From positions 112,074-176,073 of the forward strand of contig PHAI01000001.1 of NCBI GenBank assembly GCA_002840305.1: a stretch of 64,000 bases of DNA. The letters are read 5' to 3'. Under the pieces are notes generated by a model. The model did no database searches. It worked only from the letters and a program-made list of their open reading frames with translations, and was not told the origin of the DNA. This stretch comes from Candidatus Falkowbacteria bacterium HGW-Falkowbacteria-1 (lineage in GTDB: Bacteria > Patescibacteriota > Patescibacteriia > Patescibacteriales > UBA12465). The number at the start of each line of letters is the position of its first letter. Position 1 is the first letter of the stretch. Shown piece by piece: positions 3,255 through 54,671 of this stretch. The translations under genes were made by a program, and so were the position numbers.

Positions 3255-4676
3255 ATGCTTAATAAAAAACAAAAAGCTTTTACACTTATTGAATTATTAG
3301 TGGTAATAGCTATTATAGGTATTTTGGCTACTCTAGCGGTTGTAGCTCTACAGCAAGCCAGACAAAATGCTAGAGACGCAAAAAGAGTGGCGGACATGAA
3401 ACAGGTCTCCACTGCTTTAGAATTGTTTTTTAGTGAAAATGGTAGATATCCAACAACTGATGAGTGGAACAGTGGCGCTATAACCTCTTCTAGTACAGGG
3501 GAAATATTTATGTATAGCATTCCTGTTGCCCCAACCCCTGCTGATGGAAATTGCTCTCCCGCCTCTAATACTTATGCCTACATTCCTGTTGATAATGGCA
3601 ATAGTTATGCCATTAATTTTTGTATTGGAAAACAACTTTCAAATCTTAATGACGGAGCCAAGACAATGATCCCTGGTGGTATAGTTGATTATAGTGGCCA
3701 ACTAGAAGAAGAGCCAGGGGGTTGTTTGCCAGAATGTTCTGAGGGTTATATTTGTAATGAAGGAGAATGTGACCTTGTTGCTTGGGTTGAGCAATCACTT
3801 TCTGGTTCAAGAGAATGGTATTCTATAACCTCATCTTCTGATGGTACTAAATTGGCGGCGTGCGCTATGAATGGTTATATTTATACCTCTTCTGACTCAG
3901 GCCAAACTTGGGTGGAGAGAATTTCTGCTGGTTCAAGAAGCTGGGCGGCTATAAGCTCTTCGTCCGACGGAACAAAGCTTGTAGCGGTTAATAATTATTC
4001 TGGTGGAAGTAGTGGCGGGTATATTTATACCTCTTCTGATTCTGGACAGACCTGGGCAGAGAGAACGTCTTCTGGCGAAAGAAGTTGGGAAGGAGTAACC
4101 TCGTCTTCTGACGGAGTAAATTTGGCTGCCGTGGCTTACAATAGTGATTATATTTATACGTCAGATGACTCCGGTGTAACATGGACTGCCAGAACTTCGG
4201 CTGGAGCAAGAGATTGGGACACCATTGATTCTTCTTCTGACGGCTCTATGTTAGCAGCCATCAGTGAATGTGGGTATTTATATACATCTTCTGATTATGG
4301 GGTTACCTGGGTAGAGCAAACTTCTCTTGGGTCAAAATGTTGGAGTTCAGTTGCTTTTTCTTCTGACGGAGAAAGAGCCGTCGCCGTGGCCGCTACTCTT
4401 GATAGTGTTTATGTTTCTTCTGACTTTGCTCAAACGTGGACAGAAAAAGCATCTTCTGGATCAAGAGCTTGGTATTCAGTTTGCTCATCGTCCGATGGAA
4501 GAAAAATATTTTCCGCCGTTTGGGGTGGCTATATTTATGCATCCTATGATTATGGCGAAACATGGGTTGAACAAACTCCTTCTGGCGCAAGAAACTGGGT
4601 TGATATTTCTTGTTCAAACGACGCCAACGAAGTGTCCGCTGCCGTTAACAATGGGTATATATATACCTACAGATAA
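3255..4676 (+). CDS. Type IV pilin-like protein with a C-terminal 7-blade BNR/Asp-box beta-propeller
   Basis: The N-terminus is a prepilin domain ([30 protein letters not shown]). A Cys-rich linker follows, then about 7 repeats each carrying the S-x-D-x-G-x-T-W Asp-box (YIYTSSDSGQTWVE…SSSDG…). Confidence 0.7.
   Translation: MLNKKQKAFTLIELLVVIAIIGILATLAVVALQQARQNARDAKRVADMKQVSTALELFFSENGRYPTTDEWNSGAITSSSTGEIFMYSIPVAPTPADGNCSPASNTYAYIPVDNGNSYAINFCIGKQLSNLNDGAKTMIPGGIVDYSGQLEEEPGGCLPECSEGYICNEGECDLVAWVEQSLSGSREWYSITSSSDGTKLAACAMNGYIYTSSDSGQTWVERISAGSRSWAAISSSSDGTKLVAVNNYSGGSSGGYIYTSSDSGQTWAERTSSGERSWEGVTSSSDGVNLAAVAYNSDYIYTSDDSGVTWTARTSAGARDWDTIDSSSDGSMLAAISECGYLYTSSDYGVTWVEQTSLGSKCWSSVAFSSDGERAVAVAATLDSVYVSSDFAQTWTEKASSGSRAWYSVCSSSDGRKIFSAVWGGYIYASYDYGETWVEQTPSGARNWVDISCSNDANEVSAAVNNGYIYTYR
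3780..4673 (+). repeat. In-frame tandem repeats (~126 nt each, about 7 copies) encoding the BNR propeller blades
   Basis: Nucleotide words recur (tatatttatacctcttctga…, tcttctgacgg…) and the protein shows repeated YxSSDxGxTW…SSSDG blades. Confidence 0.7.
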
Positions 4677-5828: not shown

Positions 5829-6197
5829 ATGGTGACATCGTTTTCTGTTCTTAAATTTCGTAAAATATCCTCCCGCAAGGTAGAGGAAAAACAGAGTATC
5901 AATTCTTTTGTTCTTCGGAACAACAATGGCCAGTTAGTTCAGATAAGGCCTGGGCTTTGCAAATCGAAACCAAAGTCCTTTTTTGAAAAAATTTTCACAG
6001 GGAAAGATGTTCCTAATAAAGTTATTTTTGTCGGAAATTTGGAGACCGCTCAAACAAGGGCGGCTAATCGGCATTATTACGAAAGGGTCTTAAAGTTGAC
6101 CGAAAGTAAAGAATATAAATTACAAGAAGTAGTTTATAATGACCCCCATCATGCTCTCGAGCAAGAGGAGAGGGGTTTTGTTTTCTCGGCCAACTAA
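5829..6197 (+). CDS. Hypothetical protein (small ORF between recR and ybaB, opposite strand to both)
   Basis: The ORF is 122 aa with no recognisable motifs and is followed by a hairpin plus T-run. It has no obvious Shine-Dalgarno sequence. Confidence 0.3.
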   Translation: MVTSFSVLKFRKISSRKVEEKQSINSFVLRNNNGQLVQIRPGLCKSKPKSFFEKIFTGKDVPNKVIFVGNLETAQTRAANRHYYERVLKLTESKEYKLQEVVYNDPHHALEQEERGFVFSAN

Positions 6198-8302: not shown

Positions 8303-8434
8303 CATTTTTTATAGGATTATTAGGATTTTTGAAATACTTAGGGCGCTTGGGGCTTTGAAAACGTAAAAGTTTTAACAATAACATTGGTTTTAATAATCTC
8401 AAATATCCCAAGAATCTTAACAGCTCCACTTGTT

Positions 8435-29754: not shown

Positions 29755-29847
29755 ATAGATATAATAATATAAGTTTATTTATTATAATTTTATCGTGACT
29801 ATAGCTCGTTTTTTGATGATCTATATTTGCGAACTTTTAAAAAATTT

Positions 29848-30312
29848 ATGACAAAACAAAAGAAAGGTTTTACCTTGATTGAGTTGTTAGTAGTTATTGC
29901 CATTATTGGTATCTTGGCTACTTTAGCTGTTGTAGCATTACAACAAGCTAGAAAGAATGCTAGAGACGCAAAAAGAATTGCAGACGTTCGTCAAATGCAA
30001 ACTGCATTGGAATTGTATTTCAATGATAATCAGTTTTACCCTCCGACAGATGAGATTGCCGCTGGTGGTGAAATCGCTACTAATGGAGTAACTTATATGA
30101 ACATCGTTCCTACAGCCCCTACACCGGCTGATGGTACTTGTGACGCTGGTACAAACGCTTATACTTACACAGGCACCGGAACAGCAGTTGGCGATGCTTG
30201 GGGAAGTTATACTGTTGATTTTTGTTTAGGTGGTCAAACTGGTGGTCTTGCAGCAGGTGAAAAATGTGCTACACCTGGTGGAATCATCGATGATGCTTGT
30301 GAAAATCTATAG
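29848..30312 (+). CDS. Type IV pilin-like protein (prepilin with short leader)
   Basis: MTKQKKG|[28 protein letters not shown] is the prepilin leader and N-terminal helix. The body is paralogous to the first ~150 aa of the 3255..4676 protein. Confidence 0.7.
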
Positions 30313-30531: not shown

Positions 30532-30670
30532 ATATTAATTAGTATTTTTAAGATTATTAGGATTTTTATGACTTTTGGAATATCAAAATACAATAGTCAT
30601 CTATAAAGTATGGTTATTTTTAATCCTGAAAATCTTAAAAATCTTAATTATCCTAACAATCTTAATAATG

Positions 30671-43580: not shown

Positions 43581-43904
43581 ATTTATATAATAAAATAATA
43601 ATAAAAAAAGCAATAACAAACAAAAACAAGAGTTTTTATTTGCCTAACTCCATTAATATTGTAACAAATTAATTGGGGGGAGTAAAGGGGATGGGGTGGG
43701 ATTCTTGAGATTTTTAAGATTCTTGAGATCCTTGAGATTTTAGAAAAGCGCTGTTTGTGGGTAGGTGGGATGGCCAGGATTAATATTCAAGGGAGCCAAT
43801 GAAATCTGGCATGAAACTGGCTTGACTTTTGCAAGAAAGTGTGCCATAATTGCAAGTTAGTTTCAGGACTTTAAAAAATAAGGGGCTTTAAGTTAATTGT
43901 TAAG

Positions 43905-43975
43905 CTAATCTTTTTCTTTTGTCATCTTGACCGAATGAGGAGAGTGGCGACAAGCGATCAAAGAGATCTGTAAAC
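43905..43975 (+). repeat. Partial copy (5' arm) of the small repeat element family A
   Basis: ctttttcttttgtcatcttgaccgaatgagg…gagatctg matches the 5' half of the 47745..47866 element. Confidence 0.45.
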
Positions 43976-44026
43976 TAGATTGATTTAGCAATTAACTTAA
44001 TTATAAACCTTCAAAAATTAAAAAAC

Positions 44027-44419
44027 ATGAAAACAAAAGAAGTTTTTTCGGCGGAGTTAGTTGAAACAGTTAAGCACGATTTGAAGTGGGAGAGGGGCTC
44101 TGCTGTAATATTTGTTTGTGCATTTTTAGGGATTGGGATATCCGTTTTATTATTTCATTTCCATCTTTTGCTAGGAATAGATCCTTCCTGGCTTTATCTA
44201 TTTATTGTGTTGTGCCCAGTTATTGGCATGATTGTTAACTCTTTTTTTCCTTATTCTAATGATAAAAAAATTAAAAGGAGGCTCGAACGAATTATATCTC
44301 AAAGAAAAAGTTTTAATTCCGACCAAATTGCTTCCTTGATAATAGAGATTGAAGAAAAAAAGGATGAGTTAGAAGAGCTTCGACACGAAACGATGCTCTT
44401 GGGTGAAATTGATTATTAA
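44027..44419 (+). CDS. Small membrane protein of unknown function
   Basis: Two hydrophobic helices with a charged C-terminus. Confidence 0.35.
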   Translation: MKTKEVFSAELVETVKHDLKWERGSAVIFVCAFLGIGISVLLFHFHLLLGIDPSWLYLFIVLCPVIGMIVNSFFPYSNDKKIKRRLERIISQRKSFNSDQIASLIIEIEEKKDELEELRHETMLLGEIDY

Positions 44420-44442
44420 TTTAAAAACAGGAGGAAGTCAAA

Positions 44443-44826
44443 ATGCCGATAATTATTGTGTATGGAATTTCAGAAAAAGAAGATTCTGCTTTTCTCGAAA
44501 TGTTTATTGATCTTGTGCGGTCCAAAGTTGCCAGTATTGAAGAACTGAAAATTAAAAAAGAACAAGTTTCAGTTTTTCTCCAAAGAGATCTTGTGGTTAA
44601 AGGATTGGGCGAAGAAATAATCATTTTCGTTGAAGGTTTGATTAGTAGACCGGAAAGGACGGAGGAAGTGAAAAAAAAATTAGCCATGGAATTGGTTATT
44701 AAAGTGAACGAATCTTTTCCTAAAACTCTTTTTGTTGATTGTATTATCAAACCTTTAAGTTCTGGCGACATTTGCGCTTACGGAGAAATAAAGGGGAATA
44801 TGTTTTTTACCGATTTTAGAGATTAA
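44443..44826 (+). CDS. Hypothetical protein
   Basis: 127 aa starting MPIIIVYG. A good hairpin terminator lies downstream. Confidence 0.4.
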   Translation: MPIIIVYGISEKEDSAFLEMFIDLVRSKVASIEELKIKKEQVSVFLQRDLVVKGLGEEIIIFVEGLISRPERTEEVKKKLAMELVIKVNESFPKTLFVDCIIKPLSSGDICAYGEIKGNMFFTDFRD

Positions 44827-44845
44827 TTTTTTAAATTGGTTTATT

Positions 44846-44876
44846 AGCTGGCATTATAAATTGCCAGCTTTTTTTA
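44846..44876 (+). terminator. Rho-independent terminator
   Basis: agctggca-ttataaat-tgccagct followed by ttttttt. Confidence 0.55.
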
Positions 44877-44895
44877 GATTTAATGTTTAAGATTT

Positions 44896-45050
44896 TTTTA
44901 AAATGCGAACATTGGAAAAATTTTGAAAAAATCATAAGCGTAAAAAGCGTGTAAAATTTAATTGTTTGAGGCTGGATGAAATTTAGCCGAGCCTTAAAGT
45001 TTGCCAGCTTTTATAGTGATTGTTACGAAATCTTGAGTTGCTGGCGATTT
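44896..45050 (+). repeat. Conserved intergenic element family B, copy 1 (candidate structured ncRNA or repeat)
   Basis: By eye this is about 70-75% identical over ~170 nt to the reverse complement of 54318..54510. It shares the exact 23-mer cgtaaaaagcgtgtaaaatttaa. Confidence 0.5.
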
Positions 45051-45096
45051 CCTGCCTGCCGGCAGGCAGGTTGTGCCACTTTTTTAAAAAAGTGGC
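45051..45096. repeat. Two adjacent perfect palindromes (GC-rich 10+10 and 11+11)
   Basis: cctgcctgcc|ggcaggcagg, then ttgt, then gccactttttt|aaaaaagtggc, about 80 bp upstream of the epimerase gene. Confidence 0.8.
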
Positions 45097-45174
45097 TCGA
45101 GAAAAAATGTTTTTTGACTTTTAGGCAGTTTTAATATAAAATTTAAGTATAAATAAAAAAATATAACATAATTT

Positions 45175-46107
45175 ATGTTTAAAATTTTAGTTACAGGTGG
45201 GGCCGGTTTCATTGGTTCCAATTTAGTTAATAAACTGCTTGATTTGGGTCATGAGGTTGTTGTCATTGATGATTTATCTAGTGGCAAAAAGGAATATTTA
45301 AATCCTGTGGCCAAATTTTATCATATTGATATTAACGATAAAAAAGTAAATGACATTTTTAAAGCAGAAAGTTTTGACTACGTTTGTCACTTGGCAGCTC
45401 AAATAGATGTTAGAAAATCGGTAGAAAATATGACTTTTGATAATCAGGTTAATGTTTTGGGCGGGATAAATATTTTAAAAAATTGTCACAATTTTAATGT
45501 TAAAAAAATAATTTTTTCTTCTTCTGGTGGAGCGGCCTATGGCTTTCCTGATAAAATTCCGACCAAAGAACATCATCCAACCTATCCCGTTTCTCCTTAT
45601 GGTATAAATAAAATCTGTTTTGAAAAATATTTAAATTATTATTATAAAGTTTTTGGTCAGAAATATATTGCCCTTCGTTTAGCTAACGTTTATGGTCCGA
45701 GGCAGTACAAAGGAGGAGAGGCTGGGGTTATTGCTAATTTTACCAGCAATGCCATAGCTCAAAAAAAGAGTTTTATTTACGGAGATGGTTTGCAGACCAG
45801 GGACTATATTTATGTTGATGATGTAGTAGAGGCTTTTGTTTTGTCGATTCAGTCTGATTTTATAGGAGAGCTTAATGTTGGTACAGGAATAGAAAAAAAT
45901 CTCTTGGAAGTTGTGGAGGCCATAGAAGCTTCTTTGGGAAGTAAATTAGAAATAGAATATCAAGAAGCAAAATTAGGTGAAGAAAGAAGGAGTGCTCTCG
46001 ATGCTTCACTGGCTAAAGAAAAATTAAATTGGGAAGCAAAAATTGATCTAAACGAAGGAATAAAAAGAACTATTGAGTGGGCAAGTAATAACAATTTTCC
46101 CTCGTAA
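45175..46107 (+). CDS. NAD-dependent epimerase/dehydratase (UDP-glucose 4-epimerase-like)
   Basis: The Rossmann motif TGGAGFIGSN and the YxxxK region (…SPYGINK…) are present. Confidence 0.85.
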   Translation: MFKILVTGGAGFIGSNLVNKLLDLGHEVVVIDDLSSGKKEYLNPVAKFYHIDINDKKVNDIFKAESFDYVCHLAAQIDVRKSVENMTFDNQVNVLGGINILKNCHNFNVKKIIFSSSGGAAYGFPDKIPTKEHHPTYPVSPYGINKICFEKYLNYYYKVFGQKYIALRLANVYGPRQYKGGEAGVIANFTSNAIAQKKSFIYGDGLQTRDYIYVDDVVEAFVLSIQSDFIGELNVGTGIEKNLLEVVEAIEASLGSKLEIEYQEAKLGEERRSALDASLAKEKLNWEAKIDLNEGIKRTIEWASNNNFPS

Positions 46108-47739: not shown

Positions 47740-47744
47740 GATTT

Positions 47745-47866
47745 TTCTTTTGTCACCTCGACCGAATGAGAGGCGAAGCGACGAATGAGTGGAGATGGTT
47801 AAAACATCAAGAAGCAGATCTCTCTATTCGTCATCCGCAGGATGGCTCAGTCGAGATGACAAAAGG
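47745..47866 (+). repeat. Small repeat element family A, complete copy with terminal inverted repeats (MITE-like or structured RNA), immediately upstream of tRNA-Thr
   Basis: The 5' arm ttttgtcacctcgac pairs with the 3' arm gtcgagatgacaaaa at 14 of 15 positions. The inner pair is gacgaatgag/ctattcgtc. Confidence 0.55.
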
Positions 47867-47875
47867 GATAAAATG

Positions 47876-53744: not shown

Positions 53745-54275
53745 ATGTTGGGAGAAAAAACAAAAAAAAATCTAGAAGAAGCTTTTGCGGGCGAATCAAT
53801 GGCTAGAAATAAATATGATTATTTTGCTTCCATTTTTAGAAAAGCCGGTTATGTGCAAATTGCTAATATTTTTGAAGAAACAGCCAGAAATGAAAAAGAA
53901 CATGCCAAATTATGGGCTAAACAATTAGGTTATATTCATGAAAATATTAATGATAATTTAAAAGCGGCTATAGAAGGTGAAAATTATGAGCACACCAGTA
54001 TGTATCCTCGCATGGAGAAGGAGGCTCTGGAGGAAGGTCATGACGACATTGCTAAACTTTTTAAAGAGGTTGCCGAAGTAGAAGAGGCTCACGAAAAACG
54101 TTATAAAAAATTATTAGAAAATGTAGAAAAAGGAGTAGTATTTAAAAGAGAAGAGACTAAAAAATGGAAATGTAATAACTGCGGTTATATTCATGAAGGA
54201 ACTGAGGCACCAGAAGTTTGCCCAGCCTGTAGTCATCCTCAAGCTCATTTTGAAATTTTCATTGAAACATATTAA
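53745..54275 (+). CDS. rbr: Rubrerythrin
   Basis: A ferritin-like diiron domain (E…EKEH…E…EEAH) is followed by a C-terminal rubredoxin (CNNCGY…CPACS). Confidence 0.9.
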   Translation: MLGEKTKKNLEEAFAGESMARNKYDYFASIFRKAGYVQIANIFEETARNEKEHAKLWAKQLGYIHENINDNLKAAIEGENYEHTSMYPRMEKEALEEGHDDIAKLFKEVAEVEEAHEKRYKKLLENVEKGVVFKREETKKWKCNNCGYIHEGTEAPEVCPACSHPQAHFEIFIETY

Positions 54276-54317
54276 TATATAAATCTATTTTATACTACTT
54301 TTTTAGAAAAAGTAGCC

Positions 54318-54510
54318 AAAAATCGCCAGCAGCTTAAAACTTCGGGCCAGCTACTATAAAAGCTAGTAAAATTTAAAACTCGACTAAACTTCGTTTAGTC
54401 TTAAACAGTTAAATTTTACACGCTTTTTACGTAGCTGTCTTGTCCGAAATTTTTTCAATGCTGGCATTTATTTTTTAAAATTGTTTGCAATGTTTGCATT
54501 TTTAATGAAA
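54318..54510 (-). repeat. Conserved intergenic element family B, copy 2 (inverse orientation to copy 1)
   Basis: Its reverse complement aligns to 44896..45050 and includes the identical cgtaaaaagcgtgtaaaatttaa. Confidence 0.5.
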
Positions 54511-54590
54511 AGTATAATAAAAAGTATAATAGCATTGAAAAAAATAAATTTTTTGTATATAATAAAGCACATACAATATTAATGAATTTT

Positions 54591-54661
54591 GCGGGCGTAG
54601 TATAATGGTAGTATAAGGGTCTCCAAAACCTTTGGCGTGGGTTCGATTCCTACCGCCCGTG
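54591..54661 (+). tRNA. tRNA-Trp (anticodon CCA)
   Basis: gcgggcg…agggt-ctCCAaa-acctt…gtggg-ttcgatt-cctac-cgcccgt. Confidence 0.75.
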
Positions 54662-54671
54662 CAGGTATTAG

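Follow-up and report, generated by a model that had tools for sequence, protein, structure and literature searches.

A Conserved Hairpin-forming Intergenic Module in a Patescibacterial Genome, a Candidate Small Structured RNA

Two Inverted Copies in Long Intergenic Gaps

The window, the whole 64,000-nucleotide stretch of DNA from Candidatus Falkowbacteria bacterium HGW-Falkowbacteria-1 that was analyzed here, has a G+C content of 33% and a gene content typical of Patescibacteria (CPR). A gap of 348 nt (44827–45174) separates a 127-aa ORF (44443–44826, + strand) from an epimerase gene (starting at 45175, + strand), and a second gap of 315 nt (54276–54590) lies between rubrerythrin (53745–54275, + strand) and tRNA-Trp (54591–54662, + strand), in agreement with the original prediction, which had called both gaps unusually long (∼350 and ∼320 nt). 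Each gap contains one copy of the same element, the two being in opposite orientation, as had been proposed. Local alignment of the first (copy A, 44896–45050) with the reverse complement of the second (copy B, 54318–54510) gave a score of 127, compared with 20.7 ± 2.9 (maximum 37) for 1000 dinucleotide shuffles (z = 36), a significant result for the shuffled control that had been called for.

The pair was also returned by a repeat scan as the longest inverted repeat of the window, with arms of 150 nt (44901–45050 and 54320–54469) that are 77% complementary, and by BLAST, with 76.7% identity over 150 nt. The aligned extents, 44899–45052 (+) and 54316–54473 (−), are 77% identical; the similarity estimated by eye is thus borne out, with the computed value lying above the 70–75% first given. 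The 23-mer cgtaaaaagcgtgtaaaatttaa is identical in both copies (44939–44961, +; 54431–54409, −) and, like the gccagc/gctggc stem, is present as described, together with the other shared blocks. The homology extends beyond the limits originally set, with a conserved palindromic hairpin found 3′ of both copies. Copy B is 100% identical across four independent assemblies. A covariance model (R1) scored copies A and B at 141.8 and 166.9 bits, respectively, and with all filters off detected no third copy in the window or in the 9.8 kb further right (∼74 kb in total). Comparison of the copies revealed no conserved ORF in the module, and coding potential was rejected for a 52-aa ORF at 44976–45134 that is not kept in copy B.

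Anatomy and Fold of the Module

The module is comprised of an imperfect hairpin of ∼155 nt (the rod, 50 pairs) and a short palindromic 3′ hairpin, giving a total length of about 190–215 nt. Its parts in the two copies are listed below, where the C lineage is a group of related contigs that carry homologues and MFE denotes the minimum free energy fold.

44899–45052, + strand: rod of copy A, partly degenerate, with 41 of 50 consensus pairs (alignment, covariance model, MFE)
44939–44961, + strand: 23-mer CGTAAAAAGCGTGTAAAATTTAA, 5′ strands of helices P3 and P4, with a TAAAAT hexamer at 44952–44957
44970–44988, + strand: apical hairpin P5 of copy A, GGCUGGAU-GAA-AUUUAGCC, in which compensatory changes are clearest
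45051–45070, + strand: 20-nt perfect GC-rich palindrome CCTGCCTGCCGGCAGGCAGG, specific to copy A, inserted between the rod and the terminal hairpin
45075–45096, + strand: terminal hairpin of copy A, GCCACTTTTTTAAAAAAGTGGC
54316–54473, − strand: rod of copy B, the MFE being the full rod, with 47 of 50 consensus pairs
54409–54431, − strand: invariant 23-mer of copy B
54382–54400, − strand: apical hairpin P5 of copy B, GACUAAAC-GAA-GUUUAGUC
54295–54315, − strand: terminal hairpin of copy B, CTACTTTTTCTAAAAAAGTAG (CUACUUUUU-CU-AAAAAAGUAG), with one compensatory change, C-G to U-A, relative to copy A and the C lineage
54474–54510, − strand: partial duplication of the module 5′ end at copy B (AAAATGCAAACATTGCAAAC...), within the window-specific insert and outside the tRNA-Trp promoter

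The basal half of the rod starts with P1 (GCCAGCA/UGCUGGC), followed by the A/U-rich P2 (10–12 bp) and by P2b (5–7 bp), the register of which varies by lineage. The apical half contains P3 (AAAAGC/GCUUUU) and P4 (GUAAAAUUUAA/UUAAAUUUUAC), and ends in P5, which has 8 bp and a variable loop. A conserved 8 × 5 internal loop (NUGUUURA/GAGYY), the largest loop of the rod, is located between P4 and P5; by inspection it fits neither a K-turn nor a loop-E motif.

The same rod is the MFE in five of the six distinct copies. For copy B, the predicted folding energy is −57.3 kcal/mol for the 158-nt rod alone and −70.3 kcal/mol (z = −7.4) for a 226-nt stretch that includes the 5′ duplication and the terminal hairpin. 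The MFE of copy A is no longer the full rod, its basal stems being weakened: three substitutions specific to this copy create a GCCAGC that pairs with the former P1 3′ strand, and in the alternative 3′ helix UUGCCAGC (45002–45009) pairs with GCUGGCGA (45041–45048). Copy A appears to be decaying or restructuring. The linker between the rod and the 3′ hairpin tolerates insertions, with the 3′ hairpin itself kept with one compensatory change.

Gene Order in Relatives

Two relatives, L044 and L048, with rubrerythrin genes 89% identical to that of the window, have the order and orientation of the window (gyrB on the − strand, epimerase, TIM, TPR, tRNA-Thr, tRNA-Tyr, Fpg, AI-2E permease, rubrerythrin, and tRNA-Trp) and lack both copies of the module. 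In L044, the collinearity persists on both outer sides of the copies. Homology to L048 starts again at 45112, where the conserved promoter of the epimerase gene lies (TTGACT-17-TAAAAT, 45114–45142), and copy A forms the right end of a 1.5-kb window-specific segment (43604–45136) that is missing from L044 and L048. This segment also contains a 400-nt GC-rich intergenic region and two ORFs of 130 and 127 aa, the products of which have no match in Pfam, NCBIfam, PADLOC, or PHROGs. Copy B sits where L044 has a desulforedoxin (dfx) gene and its terminator (window 54276–54533 versus L044 10532–10775), and the homology to L044 resumes past the copy, at the tRNA-Trp promoter. The dfx gene follows rubrerythrin in L044, L048, and L052, and is missing from this position in the window genome.

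The original prediction had also suggested that the inverted copies could mark an old inversion of the block between them (45.1–54.3 kb), or a boundary. The copies do have their terminal hairpins facing inward, and they lie within 15–20 nt of the ends of the segment collinear with L048 (45112–54274), as might be expected of an inversion scar or of recombination sites at the ends of a 9.3-kb block that is mobile or invertible. However, L044 and L048 match the window in gene order and orientation within the block and beyond either end of it, from gyrB on the left to tRNA-Trp on the right, with no repeats present, the arms are just 77% identical, no recombinase is found among the neighboring genes, and the copies of the C lineage are direct repeats 1.55 kb apart, all of which makes such a role most improbable. 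As the relatives are collinear and without both copies, the copies would be independent insertions, and the inversion is refuted; a false lead is thereby removed. The boundary idea holds in the trivial sense that each copy sits in an indel relative to the relatives, and fails beyond that, with L044 collinear on both outer sides. As part of the reading favored below, the sequence comparison tentatively points to the two copies of the window being separate insertions or survivors, with no recent duplication.

Distribution and Genomic Context

Searches of the window against Rfam 15 at the gathering threshold returned eight tRNAs only, as tRNAs alone were returned for the C-lineage loci. At E ≤ 10, the best matches to the two copies were Esr41 (22.9 bits, threshold 102) and rli60 (18.5 bits, threshold 60), which are terminator-like chance matches. 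Sequence collections were scanned with exact 18-mers taken from the invariant 23-mer, so the breadth of the family is a lower bound, and the invariance of the 23-mer beyond the A/B pair is partly a result of ascertainment, because exact words from it were needed for detection. The matches in collections of species genomes and metagenomes were mostly due to chance. The 185,579 species genomes gave one other contig, and the single GTDB contig with the module has two copies.

Four contigs (L008, L058, L061, and L067), which make up the C lineage, proved to have true homologues in BLAST and covariance-model searches; thus, of the search for further copies originally proposed, the remainder of the ∼74 kb of contig yielded nothing and a related CPR lineage yielded homologues. 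Identity among the C-lineage copies is 90–100%, and they match copy B at 84% and copy A at 78%; the two copies within the window genome (77%) are consequently more diverged than copy B is from the C lineage (84%). The module core is 84% identical when copy B is compared with the C lineage, above the 73% of the most conserved coding DNA that is shared, the pilin N terminus. CPR genomes are tiny and compact, and here a non-coding module of ∼200 nt is better conserved between lineages than the coding DNA that they share. The C-lineage contigs are CPR-like, with housekeeping genes at 77–86% nucleotide identity to those of L197. One of them, L008 (CAZNDY010000028.1), is labeled "uncultured Gammaproteobacteria"; its gene content is CPR-like, with ∼78–86% nucleotide identity to Patescibacteria contigs, and it is probably mis-binned or mislabeled.

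The module is missing from 17–20-kb collinear stretches of the relatives L044, L048, and L052. It may, as a provisional part of the favored reading, be restricted to a few Falkowbacteria-like CPR lineages with a patchy distribution. Among viral contigs, phages, and plasmids, only chance matches were found (three viral pattern scans and two blastn searches, with no blastn match in 72,556 plasmids), and a viral, plasmid, or phage origin was rejected on these grounds. A weak covariance-model match in L101 (32 bits) proved to be a palindromic repeat of eukaryote-like character, unrelated to the module.

The four C-lineage contexts all have the 5′ end of the module ∼25 nt from the ATG of a divergently transcribed pilin-like gene with N_methyl and Fib_succ_major domains. 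These pilin-like genes are targets of diversity-generating retroelements (DGR): L208 has bAvd and a reverse transcriptase beside one of them, and L058 (9043–9226) and L208 (1360–1543) provide a template/variable repeat pair. L208 is 94% identical to L058 in the flanking genes and is without the module, the covariance model finding nothing in its DGR locus. At the module site upstream of its pilin gene there are three GC-rich hairpin repeats, and the first pilin codons differ too. None of the pilin-like genes of other relatives (L197–L213) has the module, nor do those of the window itself (starting at 3255 and 29845). Because the module is linked to pilin-like genes in one lineage, it may provide a way into the regulation of DGR-targeted surface proteins. 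Trans base-pairing of the module with the 5′ ends of pilin mRNAs was rejected, as the duplex energies are ordinary (25th–70th percentile of window segments), and a vestigial pilin start codon upstream of copy A was rejected with a non-significant alignment (z of 2–3.4).

Two further observations concern pilin-like genes. Those of the window (3255–4676 and 29845–30310) encode a prepilin N terminus, and the first contains six tandem repeats of ∼126–144 nt (3873–4630); their homologues in relatives are DGR targets. RVT_1 reverse-transcriptase genes are found near T4SS-pilin or pilin-like genes in L052 (3473–7551) and L202 (1–326), consistent with frequent DGRs or retroelements in the clade.

Selection on Base Pairing and Strand Preference

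In an alignment of the six sequences, 94.6% of the cells are paired, compared with 34–53% when the partners are slid by 1–3 columns. Both partners have changed in six pairs, of which four belong to P5; the Rfam and covariation analysis originally recommended has therefore produced compensatory changes and no Rfam match. Copy B and the C lineage differ by 13–15 substitutions in paired columns, yet 47–50 of the 50 pairs are intact, whereas random placement of an equal number of substitutions among paired positions leaves 37–38 ± 2 of 50 intact (P < 0.0002). The excess of pairing is still significant for the degenerate copy A (P ≤ 0.002). The fold model behind these tests comes from the six sequences themselves, which stand for three effective lineages. 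Paired columns differ between lineages by 13–15% and unpaired columns by 30–33%. The sequence comparison thus indicates that base pairing is maintained by selection.

That the copies could be functionless remnants of a duplicated intergenic segment, conserved by chance or through recent ancestry, is very improbable. Copy A, with 41 of 50 pairs, is partly degenerate as a remnant would be, but pairing has been kept against 13–24 substitutions per comparison (P ≤ 0.002), the stems evolve more slowly than the loops, and the module outdoes coding DNA in conservation between lineages. Taken together, these data reveal a hairpin-forming non-coding module that is real, is under selection, and belongs to no described family. 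The original proposal of a functional RNA or cis-element rather than chance is upheld, both by the significance of the similarity and by the selection on pairing that the homologues of another lineage reveal.

The wobble pairs are not symmetric with respect to strand. In the sense orientation (+ for copy A, − for copy B) there are 18 G·U cells versus 6 A·C cells, and the sense RNA is predicted to be 8–15 kcal/mol more stable than the antisense RNA in five of the six copies. The favored strand is unchanged whether the module is co-directional with its neighbors (copy A) or opposed to them (copy B and all C-lineage copies). This independence from neighbor direction argues against mere co-transcription with the flanking genes and favors either an independent transcript or a single-stranded role of that DNA strand.

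A Small Structured RNA as the Preferred Reading

The reading that we favor, still tentatively, is that the module is a gene for a small structured RNA that would probably bind protein, a gene restricted by lineage and patchy in its horizontal distribution. It is preferred because the wobble bias consistently points to one strand, the copies are few, the 3′ hairpin is conserved, and the apical half is invariant in sequence. Transcription as an independent RNA and action through protein binding are both inferred. The product would be a discrete, strand-specific RNA of ∼190–215 nt, transcribed in the + direction at copy A and in the − direction at copy B. Its rod would act as a protein-binding platform, with the binding site carried by the sequence-invariant apical half (P3, P4, and the internal loop) and P5 serving as a structural clamp only.

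Several features count against a small RNA. The 3′ hairpin has no canonical U-tail, and no consistent sigma-70-like promoter was found upstream of P1, where only copy B has a weak match (TTTTCA-16-TATTAT, 54541–54514). The absence at syntenic sites and the identities (77% within the genome versus 84% between copy B and the C lineage) fit a mobile element at least as well, and a cis role is hinted at by the constant association of the C-lineage module with a pilin-like gene.

Of the known RNAs, 6S RNA resembles the module in its length (∼160–200 nt) and irregular rod, to be compared with the ∼155 nt and 50 pairs of the module rod, and in having conserved internal loops flanked by covarying helices. 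It also occurs as two diverged paralogues in one genome, as in Bacillus. In contrast, the module has no large open central bubble of the kind with which 6S RNA, which binds sigma-70 RNA polymerase and templates pRNA, mimics an open promoter; its center is a 5–7-bp helix in every lineage (CAGCUAC/GUAGCUG in copy B, GACAG/CUGUC in the C lineage, and AAUCAU/GUGAUU in copy A). No Rfam 6S model scores even at E ≤ 10, and unlike 6S RNA, which is a housekeeping RNA, the module is missing from the collinear stretches of L044, L048, and L052. A 6S-like identity was rejected for want of a central bubble and of a model match. The literature searched surfaced no lineage-specific non-coding RNAs of CPR/Patescibacteria, and the module is a concrete candidate in CPR for either a new structured RNA or a new small mobile hairpin element.

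A Palindromic Repeat as a Close Rival

The second of these would be a palindromic intergenic repeat, non-autonomous and of the MITE, ERIC, Correia, or REPIN type, that has spread or been exchanged as DNA. It is somewhat unlikely, and stays a close rival of the small RNA because of the patchy spread, the indels at syntenic sites, the presence of further palindromic repeats, and the fact that no promoter is found consistently. As such a repeat, the hairpin would be kept for mobility or for a cis role as a transcript end, stabilizer, or insulator, with copy B being the terminator of rubrerythrin. The whole unit is an imperfect palindrome of MITE- or ERIC-like size that is polymorphic for presence and absence at syntenic sites among relatives and occurs in unrelated contexts in both orientations. 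Copy A is additional DNA, with a terminator upstream of it and the conserved promoter of the epimerase gene on its other side, copy B replaces dfx and its terminator of L044, and the three GC-rich hairpin repeats of L208 stand where L058 and L061 have the module. Other small palindromic repeats are found in these genomes as well.

With respect to the cis role, the basal stem of copy B reads GCCAGCA...UGCUGGC on the + strand and is followed by AUUUAUUUUUU, and copy B is the only terminator-like structure between rubrerythrin and the tRNA-Trp promoter; judged from this arrangement, the stem may have been co-opted as the rubrerythrin terminator. Like intrinsic (bidirectional) terminators, the module has a GC-rich basal stem flanked by an A-tract and a U-tract, and copy B lies exactly at the place of the dfx terminator of relatives. 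Unlike them, it is ∼five times longer, with a sequence-invariant interior and a second hairpin, and the terminator scan did not call it. The wobble bias also runs the opposite way to that predicted for a co-transcribed cis element, favoring the strand antisense to the flanking genes for copy B and the C lineage.

Other properties of the module are at odds with a repeat family. The copy number is very low (two in ∼74 kb) and the copies are old (77% identical), and no genome has copies that are nearly identical to each other. Neither a target-site duplication nor a clean empty site can be defined: at the comparable sites (L048 and L044 for copy A, L044 for copy B, and L208 for the C lineage) other DNA replaces the module. 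With regard to terminal inverted repeats the picture is mixed, in that the whole rod is one long inverted repeat and the 3′ hairpin lies outside it, which makes the unit asymmetric. No transposase or recombinase is found among the neighboring genes, and the plasmid, phage, and viral collections contain no match.

REPINs have been described previously (PMC3116915). Together with ERIC, Correia (CREE), and RUP/BOX elements, they share with the module an imperfect palindrome of 100–200 bp that folds into a long hairpin, a strictly intergenic location in either orientation, presence or absence at orthologous sites, and a conservation of fold that suggests selection at the RNA level. Correia elements have promoter-like hexamers in their arms, as does the module. 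Compared by description rather than by sequence, these families differ in having tens to hundreds of similar copies, whereas the module has two in ∼74 kb that are 77% identical, no terminal-repeat or target-duplication signature, no RAYT or transposase nearby, and an extra asymmetric 3′ hairpin.

Other recombination-associated hairpins were also considered and rejected. An attC site was dismissed as by inspection there are no R″/L″-L′/R′ boxes (RYYYAAC...GTTRRRY) at the stem base, the module precedes genes in L008, whereas attC sites lie at the 3′ end of cassettes, and no integrase was seen. For attC, retron, and DGR RNAs alike, no reverse transcriptase or integrase is found among the called genes of the window from 43.7 kb rightward, and the covariance model is blank in the DGR locus of L208.

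A Possible Promoter Cassette or Single-stranded DNA Promoter

The module could also be a promoter cassette for the adjacent gene, although this is improbable. In its strong version it would be a hairpin promoter in single-stranded DNA, like Frpo/ssi or the M13 minus-strand origin, with the A/T-rich P2 acting as an UP-like element, a −35-like GACA in P2b, a 17-nt spacer across P3, a TAAAAT −10 box in P4, and the internal loop at about +1. Transcription would then proceed round the loop and out of the 5′ side of the module, into the neighboring gene. The motif (A/G)(A/G)GACA-17-TAAAAT occurs on both arms because the module is palindromic: in copy B it lies at 54441–54413 in the sense orientation, with GGGCCA-17-TAAAAT at 54344–54372 on the + strand, and in L008 and L061 it is found on both strands. 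The folded strand is the template of the gene at the module 5′ end for copy B (tRNA-Trp) and for all C-lineage copies (pilin-like genes), and exchange in the C lineage involves the module together with the first pilin codons, as a single block. For copy A, there is no such gene and the folded strand is not the template of the downstream gene; the TAAAAT of the 3′ arm is mutated there, with the 23-mer of the 5′ arm intact. Moreover, tolerance of G·T pairs would give the same strand bias as G·U.

However, the promoter-like matches occur at the frequency expected by chance in AT-rich DNA (2–4 found versus ∼2.3 expected), and the −35 boxes are weak compared with genuine promoters of the window (TTGACT, TTGAAA). 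A strong promoter belonging to tRNA-Trp itself lies beyond the module (54535–54563) and is conserved in L044. The module sits among chromosomal housekeeping genes, without a relaxase, an oriT, or a Rep protein in the vicinity and with no similarity to any plasmid sequence (blastn, 72,556 plasmids), and a plain double-stranded promoter leaves the selection for pairing in P1, P2, and P5 unexplained.

Frpo and ssi are single-stranded DNA promoters of conjugative plasmids (Masai and Arai 1997, as cited in PMC11541004). They and the M13 minus-strand origin have in common with the module a long imperfect hairpin, a stem from which −35 and −10 boxes 17 nt apart could be rebuilt, and A/T-rich pairing upstream of them; the likeness to Frpo/ssi extends to the folded strand being the template of the adjacent gene in two of three independent contexts. 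The module differs from Frpo/ssi in being chromosomal and outside a plasmid leading region, in having no oriT, relaxase, or ssb/anti-defense genes, and in its weak −35 boxes. By analogy, there is a slim chance that it is a chromosomal hairpin promoter, Frpo-like and unrelated in sequence, in which the folded template strand would recreate UP, −35, and −10 elements and a pre-opened start site, and that would drive the adjacent gene before second-strand synthesis, the targets being DGR-diversified pilin-like genes in one lineage and tRNA-Trp in the window. CPR bacteria are thought to depend on DNA uptake via type IV pili, and such a promoter, if real, would tie incoming or exposed single-stranded DNA to the expression of uptake or adhesion machinery.

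Other Repeats in These Genomes

A second intergenic repeat family is present in the window, with copies at 43911–43951 and 47742–47782 that are 83% identical over 41 nt and GC-richer. The full element spans about 47744–47868. The copy just upstream of tRNA-Thr forms a ∼120-nt hairpin with ends TTTTGTCAYCTCGAC...GTCGAGATGACAAAA (z = −3.5), and the copy upstream of the 130-aa ORF looks truncated. GC-rich palindromic TGTCAT... units, similar to this repeat, occur upstream of pilin genes in L058, L061, and L208.

Tiny GC-rich palindromes are also found inside single copies of the module, at 45051–45070 in copy A and at 6035–6062 and 6077–6137 in L008. In copy A and in L008 copy 2 they separate the rod from the terminal hairpin, and in L008 copy 2 they also occur within the loop of that hairpin, which suggests a separate class of tiny mobile hairpins. 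Finally, intergenic arrays of octamers resembling TTAAGATT, TTGAGATT, and TTAGGATT are found by tRNA genes and gyrB (43700–43746, 8388–8420, and 30536–30650) and, in similar form, in upstream regions of L061 and L208; from their sequence, these arrays may be protein-binding sites.
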